Shown here: in pieces, positions 2,119-14,310 of the stretch | How the letters are laid out: the number at the start of each line of letters is the position of its first letter | Numbering within the stretch: position 1 is the first letter of the stretch | Position numbers and translations under genes: made by a program | Notes under the pieces: model-generated | The model's input: only the letters and a program-made list of their open reading frames with translations | Told to the model about the DNA's origin: nothing | The model's database searches: none | NCBI GenBank assembly: GCA_951406725.2 | Contig: OX597815.1 | Span: 11,036,001 to 11,100,000, forward strand | Source of the DNA: Octopus vulgaris | Taxonomy: Eukaryota | Length of the DNA stretch: 64,000 bases | Direction: 5' to 3'

Positions 2119-3889
2119 TATGATAGCCTTCAGCGAATTTACTTTCCCTTATCTAATATGTCAACCAACGAAAACAGCCATCTTTTTCCCACTGCTGTGA
2201 AAAAATCCTTCCTGGTATTTCTCCTTACTTTTCATTTTTGATTTCTTGATCTTCTATTCTTCTAAATTGTTTTTCTTTTTTAAATTCACCGCCTACCTTG
2301 TATGTTACCGTCTTCCACTATTCCTATTGTGGTCTTCGGATCTAGTCTATTTAACCTTATCGGACGCCTATTGTCACCCATCATCTGCACCCGTCAAGCA
2401 CAATCCCATTTTTACCATTGTGTAAGTTTGACAATGTTATCATTTTTTACTTTTTCTGAAATTCATTTTGTTGATTCATGATATCTCCTCATTACTCTAA
2501 ATATAATGCGTTCATGTCTATATTTAGCTGTTCTTAGCTTGTCTGTATTTTTTGTCAGTTTCTACGTTTTTATATCATATAAAATTTGCAGGATGATGCA
2601 TTGGTTGTTAACTGACCTAATATTGACCTTCAATTGCTGGCCTGCCTACATTAGAAAAAGTTCCATCACTACGGTATTTATCAATGCTGTTTACGCCATC
2701 TTCTGTCATAGACCTGTTGACACAAAATTTTCCTTATCGAATAACAAATCACTATATGTCACAATATATTCACACTGCCTACCAATTTCCATATAGATTA
2801 TTCCGAAGAAAATGCAAGCAACAATACAACTAACAAACAACAGTAACAAACGAAGAAGACAATATTGAAATGAGGCAGTATCTTGTCGGTTTTTCACACG
2901 TCGTATCACAATTGTGGTTCTCCTTATGTCTGCGAGAAACGCTTAATGCTATGAAAAATGCAAGCTAACTTCTACGCCGCCACTCCATCCTACGCAAATT
3001 ACAAGCAAAATTCCTTACACCAAACTTTATCGTCTTTAATAAAGAAAGAACACATTTGGTAATGCATTCTTAGATTCGCAATTCTCCCAGTGAAGGATTG
3101 CTGAATTATTGCTGAAACATCTTCAGTCTTGGGTTTTCTCACTCAGATCTTACCTGGGACTAAAGAACAGCTATACAATGTTACTTTTCTAATTGTCGTA
3201 ACCATCCCGTCCTGTTGATAGATATAATATATCTAGGATTACCTTATCTAGTGTGTTTTACCTTGTGTAAATGTAGGTCTACTCTCATTCAACAACATTG
3301 ATCAAAAGTGTTCCAGATGTGGCCATCGCCGTGCCTTCAAACTTATTGTATCTATTACTACATTATGTAATGTCTGAGTCCTAGTTTATGTTTTGTATCA
3401 GGCCAACTTTAACCAAGTAGATCTGTGATCAACGGCGTTCCAGCCATGATAACACCATCATTTATTCAGAGAAGGTATTAAAATATATATTATCCAATGT
3501 GTTTTTCCCTATTTTTAAAACGGTGTGGAATCATTTGAGAGTTTAGGAAAGATTCGGTTGCTAATTCTAGCATATCGAGCTACCCGACAGAAACTTCTTC
3601 CTTGGTTCAATTATATTTCTAGACATATTTATCACCAGTATTATCGTTAGTGTTTTTGTTTTGCTGCAGGTGAACGCTGATCGAACAAACTTATCGTCAA
3701 AAGCATTCCGGCTACGATTATCCCGTCTGTTCGACTCTCCAGGTTTATATTAAATACTAACACGATCTTTCCTTTTGAAAGACAGATGAGGAATATGGGA
3801 GGTGATAATTGCTATATTTAGAAAGTAATTCGATCATGTAAAGGCTTCCTCGTGTTTTGATATCATTAATGTTTGGTGTTTATACAATT

Positions 3890-4020: not shown

Positions 4021-4219
4021 AATTTGAGGTCTTGTTTGGTGTTTAAATGTGTCTAACAGGGATTATAGAGATTTTTGAAAAGTTTTTCTTTTAGGTAAAT
4101 TCAGTGATTTTTTTTTGTCATTTGGTGACAAGTAATTAGCAAACTAACTCATTAAGAAAATCTTTATCATTAGCATTACTTCTCAGATAAGTAATTTATA
4201 TTGGTATATATATATGTAT

Positions 4220-4779
4220 AAAAATTATTTATAAAAAATACAAAATGGGACAAGAACGCAAAACACACAAAGAGACGACACAAAAAACGGACGGGTCATT
4301 CGAAGCCTCTAATCTTCAGTCAGGAACCGGATCATCTTCGCAATTTCGGTTGATTAATCCTGAGATCGCTCCGATCCGGCCAGCCCCAAGGAAAAACTAA
4401 GCTACGAGCATTAGATTTCTTGGAAAAAGGATCGAATGTATACGAAACAAGGACAGAAAAACGGACGATGCCACACGAATATAAATACAAAAAATAAAAA
4501 TAAAAAACAAGAATAGTAATAACAGGACAAAATCAGCGGGTGTCTTACGACTTTAGACAGTTTAACTTATCTTAGCTGGTATTGTCGGTATTGTCGTGGC
4601 GGCGGTCAAAGGCCGAAAGGCTAGTTGACCAGCGGTCACGTGAGAGGAGAGAAGAAGAGAGAGAAAAACAGGGGGCAAAGGAATCAAAGAGAGAGAGAGA
4701 AAAAAGAGGGACGAAGGCACCAGGGGGGGGGGAGAAAGAAGGAATTAAAGAGGGGAGAAGAAACAGAGTGTGTCAAGGG

Positions 4780-4785
<6 letters not shown>
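4220..4785 (-). mobile_element. PLE pseudo-LTR-like fragment between (TA)n runs, with degenerate HHR-like cores
   Basis: Minus ctgaaga...cttcgaa (4300-4319) and ctcagga...ccgaaa (4344-4364); T-rich 3' end like 41920-42125 and 62526-62690. Confidence 0.45.
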
Positions 4786-9924: not shown

Positions 9925-12041
9925 AAGACGAAGAGCGCGATTTGGTTGTAAGATATTTTATTAGTTGAACGACATTTCAACAGTACGACATTTCAACAGT
10001 CAAGTTCAAAATACGAATTAATAACTATTCAAAATTACAGAAAATTTAAACGTAAAGTATGAACGAGATCAATCAGCGTCCATACGTTGATGGAATGACA
10101 TCATCAGTTTTTAAGTTAAAATCTTATAACAGGCGAAAAGAAAAAGACAGGAAAAAGAACAGAAAAAAGAAGACGACAGGAAAAAAGAAAAGAAAAGGAG
10201 AGAAAGAAGAATATTTAATCAAACAGCTTTGGATAAATTTGATGATATTCTATCATCTTATTCATTCTTCCAGGGCGTGATGTTAATATCCTGCAAACAT
10301 ATTTCTCCTCATACATTCTGAGAAGTGAAAGTGAAGCAGATTCAGAATATTTTCTCGAGAATATGCATTTTCAAGTCTTCTTCAAAATTGCAGCCGCTTG
10401 AAACGAAATGTTCAGCAAGTTCTGTCGGACTACTGTTATTGTGCCTAACGTCGAATCTGTGCCCATCAAACATTTCATTTAATTGTTCTGTTGTGCAACC
10501 AACATAAATTGTGTTTCGTGCATTCTGCAGCGTACACCAAATGGGAATCTTTACACGTTCCAAATTCTGCATAAATCATAACATGTCTATTAGGATTTCT
10601 GATGGAATTCACTTTACTCATGTTGTTGCATAATGAACAGGGCTTACCTTTCTTGCGGCGGTTTTTTAAGGTAAAGCGTGCAGATACTCCAATGTTCGTT
10701 TTCTTGGAGTCAGAAATAGAGGTCAATAATTCTTTTATGTTCTTATTCCGTCTAAAGGCTACAATAGGCGGTTGAGGAAATATCTGTTTGAAGCAAGGAT
10801 ATTTTTTCGCCACATGCTGGTAACTTTCATGCAACACTTTTGAAATACCAGCGAAATGTCAGTGCCAGTTAATCACTAAAAGAATTCTGTCATCTATTGT
10901 ATTGTGTTTGTTAAAATTATGCGTGAAGGTTTGACTATTCTTCGCTAATCTTAGCTATTTCATTTGCTATTTCCTTTAATCGTGATTCACTGTAACCGAG
11001 TTTGACATTATGACATACAAAAGCATTTGCATGTTTCCAGTAAACCCCTGTATCAGCACAAATTCCGTTTTATCCGAAAAAATTGGGAATTCGGATTTGA
11101 CCGAATAAGATGATGCGGAGGAAAGGAGCGGCGATGGAGATAAATATAGGATGACGTGGGCTTGCAAAATAACTCTGTCGCTATTCTGCCTCCAGAAAAC
11201 TTGCCTTTTGTGTCCAAAAATTCAACGCTGAAAAAACTAGACGTAAATTTTATGTTGGACTTAACGTCATAGTTTCTAGCATAACAGTCACAGAAATGCA
11301 AGACATCCATTAAAGTATCCTGTAATGCTTCCCAGACAAAAAATACGTCGTCAATGAACCGTAACCAGAGTATTGATTCATGACCATGAAGGGATTTGAA
11401 TGCCATCCGTAACTGTCTCGAATTTCGTCATGAAAACATTAGCGAAATTAACTGCCATGGGGGTACCCATGTCGCAACCCTTTGGTGGCAAAATATTTGT
11501 CTAAACTTCATTGTGTTACTTTCTAACACAAACCTCAATAATCTACAGAGAAAATTTGATGGAATACTTTTGTTTGACCGCTTTTCAAAGGCATCCATGC
11601 ATACTTCTACCCCTTCATTGTGGTCAATATTGGGATATAAGGAAGAAGCATCCATGGTTACCAAAAATCATCATTTCTCAATACGGCCTCGGTGCTTGAA
11701 AAAGTTGTTGATTTTAGATGCAAAATCAAAGGTATCCCGAATATAGGAACTTGATCGTTTTGCGACGGGGAGTAGGAAGCCATCCGGCCATTCCGAAATT
11801 TTGACCGTCAAACATTCATATCCGCTACAAATTGGGCGCATTGGGGGAAATCTTTCGAACTTTTTGTGTATTTTAGGGAAACCATAAAATACAGGTGTTC
11901 TCCTTTCTGTCCTTAAAATCTTAGATTCAGCCTTATTAACGAAATTGTTTTCCTCCATTCCCAGAATTATTTTGTCAAGTTCCTCTCTGTAATTGGGGTT
12001 TGGATCGACAGGTAATTCTTCATATGAAGTTTTGTCATTTA
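9925..12041 (-). pseudogene. Penelope-like retroelement (Neptune-type) RT + Zn linker + GIY-YIG, frameshifted and 5'-truncated
   Basis: FYGFPKIHK...PPMRPICS; TMDASSLYPNIDH; WLRFIDDVFFVW; KPT; PPIVAFRRNKNIKELL; KPCSLC; LVYAAEC...YVGCTT. Confidence 0.92.
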
Positions 12042-12289
12042 CTACAAAGATTAGGAGAAAATGAACTAAAAAAATGGAAAGCTACCAAAATAGGATACCG
12101 GGAAAGAATGCACAAATTTGAACAGAGAAAGACATGCTCCCTAACACGGAGTAAAGTCTTCCAGATCAAAACGATTTAATCGCGAAAAGGCTGTGGCTAT
12201 CCTTGTTAGAAATGAAGATTTTCTTAATAGCAAAAGAGTATGAACGTGACTACGCTCAGCACACGAAAAACAAAAAGCAGAACAAGAAT

Positions 12290-12522: not shown

Positions 12523-13441
12523 CAGAACAAGAACACCGATTAGTAGAGGGACCAACAACTCCCCACAAAAGAAACAGCTATCCAGATGAAAGTCTATTTG
12601 GTTTTGTAGAAGAAAGAGGTTTACAGAATAAGAAAGCAGCCTACTACTACAATTGAATGAAGCAGGAAATAGCGAAAAGAAGCTACTAGTTCTGAGCAAA
12701 ATTGATGGGGGAAAGTTATATAAAGTAAGGGAAAAAGATGGATATCAAAAACATCACAGACTTAAACGACCTTATATATTGTGCAGTCTGTCGCTGTGCA
12801 CGCACTTGGGGGTTAAAACTGAGAGAAAAACGAAAGACAAAACCCCATGGCTGGAACAAAAGCTTGAGAATTAAGCTGAACAGCTCAAAAGAGATCTTGG
12901 ACAGATAAATGCAATCATAGAGAAGACAAGGGGAAGGAGAAAAATAGGAACGAACTGTAAAGAAAACACAACATAAGACAGAACAAATGCAAGCAGTTAA
13001 GACCTAAAACAAAAGAATCAAAGCAGTGTCGGATAGAAAAAAAGATACCAGCTGAGAACAAATCAGTTCCAGTAAAATAGACCCTCCAAGAACAACGAAT
13101 GAAAATTCTATAAACAGTTGAACAATGAAAAATATCATCAGGGTAATTATATAACATGCTGAAGGAGCAAGAAAATTCTGGGCAGAAATCTGGAGCAAAG
13201 AAGTTCAGCATAATAAAAAAAAAACAGGCTGGTTACGGGAATTTAAAAGACAAATGGAAGATGAAGTGACAGAAAAGAGTATAACAATCACGGATACGAA
13301 AGTAAAAGAGATGACTAAGAAAATACCAAACTGGAAAGCTACCGGACCAAATGGTGTCCAATGCTTCTAGCTAAAAAAAAACCTCCCAATATACACACTT
13401 ATATACAACCGTTTTTTATTGACTGCATAGAAAAAAGAACA

Positions 13442-13708
13442 AGTGAGAAATTTGACAAGACAGTCATTCACCGGCTGACACTCGCTGACGATACATCGAA
13501 GAGGTCAGGGAACAGAAGAAAGAAGAAGAAAGAAGACATGCACCCAACACCAGAGCTGAAGACACCTCCGAAAGGGGGGGGGGGCGCCACGGCAAAACGG
13601 TAGAGGAGTAGGGGACGAAACCGGACGTGGTTCCTCCTGATGATGTCTTGAGCTAACTGGATCCTATAAAGGGGCTGTTGTGGTAGCAGACCACGAAACA
13701 CGGTTGTA
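13442..13708 (+). mobile_element. 267-bp multi-hammerhead insert interrupting the R4 RT frame
   Basis: R4 reads DCIEKRT|IP.WMTKGRT across it; ctgacga 13485, ctgaaga 13556, ctgatga 13637; gaaa 13617 and 13695. Confidence 0.65.
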
Positions 13709-14310
13709 ATTCCCCTGGATGACAAAAGGAAGGACAGTGCTGATCTGATACTGAAGAACGAAGAAAAGAGAATGGGTACTCAGCTATTATAGACCTATTG
13801 CTTGCTTACAATTACTCTGGAAACTATTTACTGGCCTCATAGCAAATGAAGAGTATAATGTTCTGGAAAAGGGAACCTACTGCCAGAAGAGCAAAAGAGA
13901 TGTAAGAAGAAATCAAGAGGAACTGGTGATCTGCTATACATAGATATATCAAATGAGGTACGAGTAAGGTGGAATAATTTAGTTGTTGGGTGGATAGATT
14001 ACAGGAAGACCTAGGACGATGTTTCTCAAAGCTGATTCTTGGAACGACTGAGGACGCTCAGAATCAATGAGAAGATAAACAGCTTTCTGAGAAAACAATG
14101 TGAGAATAAGAAGTAGAACTGACGTGCAAATGAATCGCTAGGTTACGTGAAAATAAGCAAGAACATTTTCCATTCCTCTTCATCATTGCGCTAATTCCTC
14201 TGACAGGTATAGTGAGAAAATCCAGATCTTCCTATGAGTTTACCAGAACCAAGATAAAAATTAACCACTTATTTTATATGAACGACCTCAAGACATTTAC
14301 AAAAAAAAAT

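Follow-up and report, generated by a model that had tools for sequence, protein, structure and literature searches.

A split hammerhead core, predicted to self-cleave, in the 3′ UTR of HERO-like LINEs of Octopus vulgaris

Results

The stretch of DNA analyzed (the window) comprises 64,000 nt of Octopus vulgaris contig OX597815.1 (assembly GCA_951406725.2, positions 11,036,001–11,100,000 of the forward strand); coordinates below are those of the window. At the locus of interest, one LINE is nested in another:

13155–13441, plus strand: left-flank host, the RT N-terminal region of a decayed R4-like RLE LINE, resembling R4-5_BX by eye (PMC7650587 supplement)
13442–13713, plus strand: 3′ UTR tip of a 5′-truncated HERO-like LINE (family A); right junction uncertain within 13711–13714
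13709–13713, plus strand: ATTCC, family A's fixed 3′ end; beyond it the unit runs on TCAGATAC into its own 5′ start
13714–14300, plus strand: right-flank host, the same R4-like LINE as on the left (WMTKGRT..YRPIACL..)

The insert (272 nt, counted to ATTCC) breaks the decayed R4-like RT frame and is richer in GC than its flanks (0.47–0.54 versus 0.33–0.40), as an earlier note on this DNA had observed. The same note correctly recorded three CTGANGA words, which lie at 13485, 13556, and 13637, and the lack of a visible target-site duplication. It placed the right junction at 13708, after a GTA taken to be a hammerhead cleavage site. In 30 family A copies, this one included, the bases following GTA are A (30/30), T (29/30), T (29/30), C (28/30), and C (30/30), after which host bases match the continuation of the unit with falling frequency (T in 24/30, C in 15/30). 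Uninterrupted host sites, anchorable at 12 of 19 loci, read D-C-I-E-N-G-T-P-x-W, without an Ile codon. Because the bases after GTA are fixed and the host sites lack Ile, ATTCC must belong to the element and the apparent "IP" of the interrupted frame is accidental. The element thus ends at about 13713, 5 nt further than proposed and 111 nt past the cut predicted below. Since the true junction lies away from 13708, an outcome the earlier note had itself named as refuting its reading, the insert is not the cDNA of an RNA 3′ end cleaved there.

Decayed pieces without a Pfam match, which we take to be a Penelope-like RT and a GIY-YIG domain with a C-terminal position of the endonuclease, lie elsewhere in the window (10342–12081, minus strand).

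A search of the source genome (G000) with the insert returned 1931 first-look candidates, so paralogues, which the earlier note had suggested looking for, are plentiful; among 40 candidates scored, 39 were other copies with 94%–96% identity. Thirty loci were fetched. Their 5′ ends are ragged, their 3′ end is fixed, and their insertion sites show no relatedness beyond about 6 bases. The window insert is a solo copy; its relatives extend upstream into the RT-RLE ORF of a ~3.9-kb unit (~3.85–3.92 kb in family A). Longer copies contain a single upstream ORF (ORF pieces from L031–L036) in which RT is accompanied by what we take to be a C2H2-type finger, a CCHC-type finger, and an RLE-type end. The RT matches Pfam RVT_1 with an E value of about 1e-6, just under the cut-off, and the Pfam search gave no match for the RLE domain of this ORF. 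The combination of RT, CCHC finger, and C-terminal restriction-like endonuclease in one ORF is that of the HERO clade, and the RT motifs resemble those of HERO-1_BF and HEROTn, and not those of R4-5_BX, in the supplementary sequences of PMC7650587; the grouping is by likeness of the RT, judged by eye. HERO-like relatives were found in fish, lancelet, sea urchin, mussel, and coral, and a metagenomic relative, L037, is 61% identical at the protein level. The viral contigs searched contain no relatives, and the prokaryote genome contigs yielded only two short fragments lacking the 3′ UTR.

The insert is therefore the broken-off tail of a high-copy HERO-type LINE nested in a decayed R4-like LINE. 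The earlier note had read it as retrozyme-like. What stands of that reading is a retrotransposed RNA with a hammerhead core; the identity as a retrozyme is ruled out, as the insert is the tip of the 3′ UTR from a family of RLE LINEs that is autonomous. Indeed, it is not a non-coding tandem unit of 170–400 nt, carries no type-I hammerhead, and has boundaries that are not set by the cut. Short, internally deleted, non-autonomous units of about 0.33–1.4 kb do occur in family A (L162, L167, L175, and L178) and family D (L131); these retain the junction and the motif, and L178 is a partial tandem of a ~330-nt, retrozyme-sized unit.

The insert contains the parts of one hammerhead core in an unusual order. 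Written 5′ to 3′, with the cut marked by a slash, the order is IIa, P1a, then IIIa-UH/Ia (block S), IIb-GAAA-IIIb (block G), P1b, and Ib-CUGANGA (block C). The predicted cut in the window lies between 13602 and 13603.

13580–13585, plus strand: place of the stem II 5′ strand (IIa); here a G run, GGGGGC, and GGCCCC in intact copies and L037
13588–13593, plus strand: P1a, 5′ strand of the bridging helix, with one private mismatch (13592)
13598–13609, plus strand: block S, with stem III CGG, U16.1 at 13601, H17 = A at 13602, and stem I GAGGAG(U)
13611–13623, plus strand: block G, with the stem II 3′ strand, GAAA (13617–13620), and stem III strand CCG
13624–13629, plus strand: P1b, 3′ strand of the bridging helix
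13630–13643, plus strand: block C, with stem I GUUCCUC and CUGAUGA (13637–13643); stem II does not follow A9
13645–13691, plus strand: 3′ hairpin, with a hairpin at the same place recognized by eye in L037 and family D

In the window copy stem II is decayed: the G run stands in for IIa, and there is one private change each in IIb and P1a, the stem II 3′ strand in block G being GGGGAC (A13615 private) where the family has GGGGCC. A full IIa is missing in most of the 29 other family A copies compared; the source genome contains 35 exact matches to the intact 51-nt core, versus none for the reversed control. The 5′ strand of stem II beside the G run is hypervariable in family A (window 13574–13587, compared in L002–L030), the rest of the sequence being ~96% identical; possible causes are a hot spot of mutation, slippage of RT at the fold, and an effect of assembly. 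The private C-to-A change creates a 5-bp downstream stem II (13612–13616 with 13645–13649) with a one-base bulge. This accidental, plain type-SGC fold (Eckert et al., 2023) occurs, among the descriptor matches, in the window copy only.

The earlier note had proposed several hammerheads in the insert, and this did not hold: a single core, with GAAA at 13617 and CTGATGA at 13637, is conserved, and of the three boxes L037 retains this one alone. In its motif 2, stem I is out of register, with C opposite A at the second pair, and the CTGAAGA box is missing in L037. In its motif 3, three unpaired bases separate the supposed stem II, which is the 3′ hairpin listed above, from GAAA, and L037 has GAAG there. 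The suggestion that other copies might continue into a GAG-like stem I strand also failed, as complete copies continue ATTCCTCAGA, a non-pairing repeat of the 5′ stem I strand. The 3′ hairpin possibly serves in binding of RT. In family A, the end and junction (TTCCTC, window 13710–13713 plus the continuation) repeat the stem I 3′ strand, which is not seen in the other families; by pairing with the GAGGAG strand in competition, this repeat could act as an off-switch.

A protein search of the source genome revealed three further HERO-like families, B, C, and D. Family D is young, has a 3.7-kb unit, and retains intact open frames of 1099–1175 aa; its copies often end in long (TA)-rich repeats (L084, L086, and L088), and L088 contains an inverted pair of family D copies with the same 3′ flank, as in Penelope-like insertions. 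In three fish proteins (P0061, P0077, and P0079) the C termini read into the 3′ UTR and, by back-translation only, look compatible with the motif being present in fish HERO elements. The window itself holds a second, independent copy of the rewired core:

4313–4385, minus strand: rewired core of family E; predicted cut between 4364 and 4363

Family E (window 4200–4780, minus strand) is an unrelated, pyrimidine-rich, non-coding repeat of ~800 bp in which no ORF was found. It gave 4782 first-look candidates, ends in (TA)n, and forms pseudo-LTR-like partial tandems. Its core has the same rewired order as that of family A, built from different stems.

We compared one representative from each of seven lineages, families A–E of the source genome and L037 and L040 from metagenomes. 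When each strand was paired with its own partner, stem II (with the upstream partner) formed 35 of 35 pairs, stem I 35 of 35, stem III 21 of 21, and P1 35 of 35; these full scores are partly by construction, since helix registers were chosen by a pairing-maximizing parser. When partners were permuted among lineages, only 4 (stem II), 2 (stem I), 4 (stem III), and 1 (P1) of 5040 permutations reached the own-pairing score; the lineages are related, A and L037 having stems I and II in common. The canonical downstream stem II paired at only 13 of 35 positions, a score reached by 656 of 5040 permutations, and its first pair is C-C or U-C in all seven lineages, whereas the upstream one is G-C in all seven. 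The G10.1-C11.1 pair is invariant in 7/7, and spacings are nearly fixed. Stems I and III, which flank the cut, show two to four pair types per column, i.e., covariation. A, L037, D, and E keep all 13 core positions, and the representatives of B, C, and F keep 12 each.

Controls and failures were as follows. An S-G-C core descriptor found two matches in the real 64 kb versus one, not a full one, in 3.84 Mb of shuffled window. Parsing of shuffled sequences gave no motif in 60 attempts in each of three of the seven sets. No anchor or parse was obtained for 11 of 17 family B loci and two of three family C loci, and two more family B parses were poor. In two HERO-like metagenome loci with 3′ sequence, L038 and L043, the motif is absent by eye and by descriptor; L043 is maybe cut short. 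Nested folding of the insert gave a z score of −2.28, from which no support is drawn because pseudoknots are outside its reach.

The fold thus has the core bases of a hammerhead (CUGANGA, GAAA, and U-H at the junction), and its stem II, instead of beginning 0–2 nt after A9, uses a partner upstream. Block order S-G-C and a bridging helix are those of type-SGC, with the difference that block C (Ib-CUGAnGA-IIa) is interrupted. Rfam gave no gathering-score match in the window, and at relaxed E values no hammerhead was found in the insert region or in six motif loci, where the matches lay on microsatellites; the types I, II, and III models of Rfam expect circularly permuted orders, and the order here is S-G-C. 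We conclude that the tail of this HERO-type LINE very probably carries a conserved, functional double-pseudoknot fold with a complete hammerhead core.

We next consider how genomic copies are laid out. Of 30 family D loci, 17 begin within the unit; the 13 that extend to unit position 1 all continue, across a single fixed junction, into the 3′ end of the element itself. The same continuation is found in family A at 24 of 28 start-covering loci (18 independent events). The four exceptions (three independent) begin 4–8 nt beyond the junction, possibly at a linear 5′ end. In 10 of 13 cases in family D and 16 of 18 in family A, the predicted cut lies within the upstream piece; no piece starts at the cut. 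Such partial tandem, or pseudo-LTR, layout is that of Penelope-like elements.

Eighteen family A loci were examined, 11 of which have both ends. In these 11, ends belonging to one locus shared 14.3 minor alleles per kb, versus 4.7 across loci (permutation p = 0.023), a signal that comes mostly from two loci, L202 and L201. Ends belonging to one locus also differ less from each other than ends across loci do (p = 0.010). Within-locus identity in family D is uninformative because its copies are almost identical.

In sequencing run X1, which like X2 we guess to be RNA and know as contigs, one contig of an internally deleted family D unit joins its own ends, spanning both the cut and the junction. 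This contig (~1.25 kb, L089:747–1738 joined to 4222–4507) has a depth of 76, versus about 3–46 over the deleted part, and the same joint is present in X2. The joint lacks GT-AG ends and is missing from the 30 genomic family D loci checked. The X1 contig may represent circular RNA derived from HERO, or a tandem; tandem DNA would give the same picture. The X1 and X2 contigs are neutral on cleavage, since contigs do not show the ends of molecules.

Discussion

The closest relative of the fold in terms of architecture is the type-SGC hammerhead, exemplified by HRIMA-1 and its variants, which cleave in vitro at 0.007–0.19 per minute and have reportedly not turned up in any known organism's genome (Eckert et al., 2023, PMC10085705). 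As that ribozyme is described in the available part of this source, the two have in common the S-G-C order, a short linker between stems I and II, a helix bridging the far ends of these stems, and the full core. In contrast to type-SGC, IIa and the bridging strand here lie 5′ of block S, as if the molecule were circularly permuted and opened between A9 and G10.1; this opening is why the stem II partner lies upstream. Eckert et al. assume that CUGAnGA can be separated from adjacent stems by at most 1–2 nt (PMC10085705), and a one-base bulge at the link between A9 and stem II is known (PMC4209133). Another comparison is offered by the PK hammerhead, in which long-range pairing likewise takes the role of helix II and the core is unchanged (Zhan et al., 2024, PMC11300833). 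In its crystal structure, A9 still sits on the G10.1-C11.1 pair in a loop stem; the block order is classical, and one loop has its stem built from A9, G10.1, C11.1, and G12. The core described here, in contrast, is interrupted after A9 and follows a non-circular order. The A9/G10.1-opened order was not found in print, a demonstrated precedent for an open A9/G10.1 link was not found in the literature searched, and that literature yielded no type-SGC report beyond Eckert et al.; the supplements of PMC10085705 may hold eukaryotic examples. Self-cleavage at the UH site is thus likely but unproven, because type-SGC kin cleave and helix II is replaceable by a pseudoknot, but a demonstrated open link was not found. 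Judged from sequence, we predict that the rewired core probably does cleave itself at this site.

Among retroelements, Penelope-like elements (PLEs) offer the nearest parallel: their copies are 5′-truncated, form partial tandems joined head to tail, and have a hammerhead in the terminal repeats, and a circular template has been proposed for them (Cervera and De la Pena, 2014, PMC4209133). In the account of PLEs in that source, they have a telomerase-like RT, a GIY-YIG endonuclease, and minimal type-I, often dimeric, hammerheads, in contrast to the RT-RLE LINE with a monomeric, four-helix, rewired core described here; family A has neither the telomerase-like RT nor the GIY-YIG endonuclease. Naiad and Chlamys PLEs are reported, on the basis of descriptor searches, to be without hammerheads (bioRxiv 10.1101/2021.04.23.441226, in the part available), and a split core would escape descriptors. 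Animal non-LTR retrozymes are also hammerhead-bearing retroelements, with circular RNA, and are similar in size to the short family A units (Cervera and de la Pena, 2020, PMC7229834; bioRxiv 10.64898/2026.07.22.740005). They are described as non-coding tandem repeats of 170–400 nt with type-I hammerheads (PMC7229834), whereas the insert is a piece of a LINE that codes for protein, and its core is not of type I. For LINEs of the R2 group and others, the sources consulted cite HDV-like ribozymes located at the 5′ end. The literature searched, mainly open, described neither a 3′ ribozyme nor a pseudo-LTR or circular template for HERO, and no paper found in it linked HERO with hammerheads.

Directly supported by our data are the identity of the element, its fixed 3′ end, four covarying helices, the core bases, and head-to-tail run-through; the steps that follow are inferred. 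A locus built as a 3′ piece followed by a full unit would be transcribed (step 1). The two ribozymes in the transcript would cut at their UH sites, freeing one unit with 5′-OH and cyclic-phosphate ends (step 2), which stems I–III, along with P1, would hold together. The ends could then be ligated by the ribozyme or by a host RtcB-type ligase (step 3). The endonuclease would nick a target with a likeness of a few bases to the RNA at the boundary of ATTCC and TCAG, and reverse transcription would begin inside the circle, 111 nt past the cut (step 4); a start inside the circle would explain why copies end there and not at the cut. An early stop would be usual, leaving fragments like the 272-nt window insert, and RT would sometimes pass its own start, giving partial tandems (step 5).

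The layout of copies leads us to lean, with modest confidence, toward a circular (or multimeric) template for copying of the element; circular RNA, as the earlier note supposed, may be involved. Taken together, our preferred reading, held on balance rather than firmly, is that the HERO-like 3′ UTR fold likely cuts the RNA of the element and that the unit is circularized and copied round by the element's RT. A circular template had been proposed for PLEs as a model (PMC4209133).

Several other explanations were weighed against this one. The ribozyme might cut while copying proceeds from a linear template, either a tandem read-through transcript or a single RNA whose ends are base-paired but not ligated (a nicked circle), across which RT jumps from 5′ end to 3′ end. 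R2 RT is known for template jumping, and run-through, the fixed junction, and shared alleles are all accounted for equally well. Upstream starts that repeat (unit position 3368 in three family D loci, two of them probably duplicates, and tail position 1098 in two family A loci) also fit, as they may be transcript starts. On the other hand, the upstream pieces range from about 20 to 1677 nt, and arrays of more than two units were not seen in the stretches fetched. Moreover, R2 jumps usually add bases, whereas the junction and cut site have neither gained nor lost bases in the copies displayed. We regard a linear template as possible but unlikely.

A non-catalytic RNA derived from a hammerhead, such as a pseudoknot in the 3′ UTR to which RT binds, as in R2, with tandems arising independently, would agree with the invariable retention of sequence past the predicted cut in integrated copies and with the open A9/G10.1 link, and RNA ends are in any case not visible in contigs. 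Against it, CUGANGA, GAAA, U-H, and G10.1-C11.1 are kept in seven lineages while every stem changes, which is the pattern expected of selection on catalysis and makes a non-catalytic role less likely, and the core is also kept in family E, which is non-coding and has no HERO ORF. This explanation seems to us decidedly unlikely.

Tandems could instead stem from insertion into the 5′ end of older copies of the element, with the ribozyme merely trimming or degrading transcripts. Target bases do resemble the unit's own continuation, and RLE elements are often site-specific (PMC4640811, in the part available). Yet the 30 insertion sites are unrelated beyond about 6 bases while 37 of 41 start-reaching loci have an upstream piece, and the ends of a single locus resemble each other more than expected. 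We consider self-insertion very improbable. Finally, next to no weight can be given to the retrozyme with several hammerheads that the earlier note saw as cDNA of an RNA self-cleaved at GUA 13708: it draws on the three CTGANGA words and on the existence of short non-autonomous family A units, but the element continues to ATTCC, longer copies reach the RT-RLE ORF, and motifs 1–3 lack stem I, motifs 2 and 3 not being kept in L037.

Returning to the preferred reading of a cutting fold and a circularized unit, its broadest form would be that HERO LINEs cut, circularize, and roll round their own RNA by means of a core split at A9/G10.1, that this module has spread to unrelated non-coding repeats, and that such ribozymes are invisible to descriptors and Rfam. 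We offer this as a tentative proposal, giving it slightly less than even weight. The earlier note was wrong in details, yet it fell on a real, unusual, and directly testable motif. If the motif cleaves, it would be a seventh natural wiring of the hammerhead core, one excluded by the block model of Eckert et al. as set out in the available part of their paper, and the first non-circular permutation from animal genomes that we found reported. Current ribozyme searches would then be missing thousands of copies per genome, and reports of retroelements without hammerheads would need rechecking. A circular template, if true, would amount to a life cycle that is new for an R2-group LINE, a member of a class in current use for genome writing, and would provide a simple coding system in which to probe the circle model of PLEs.
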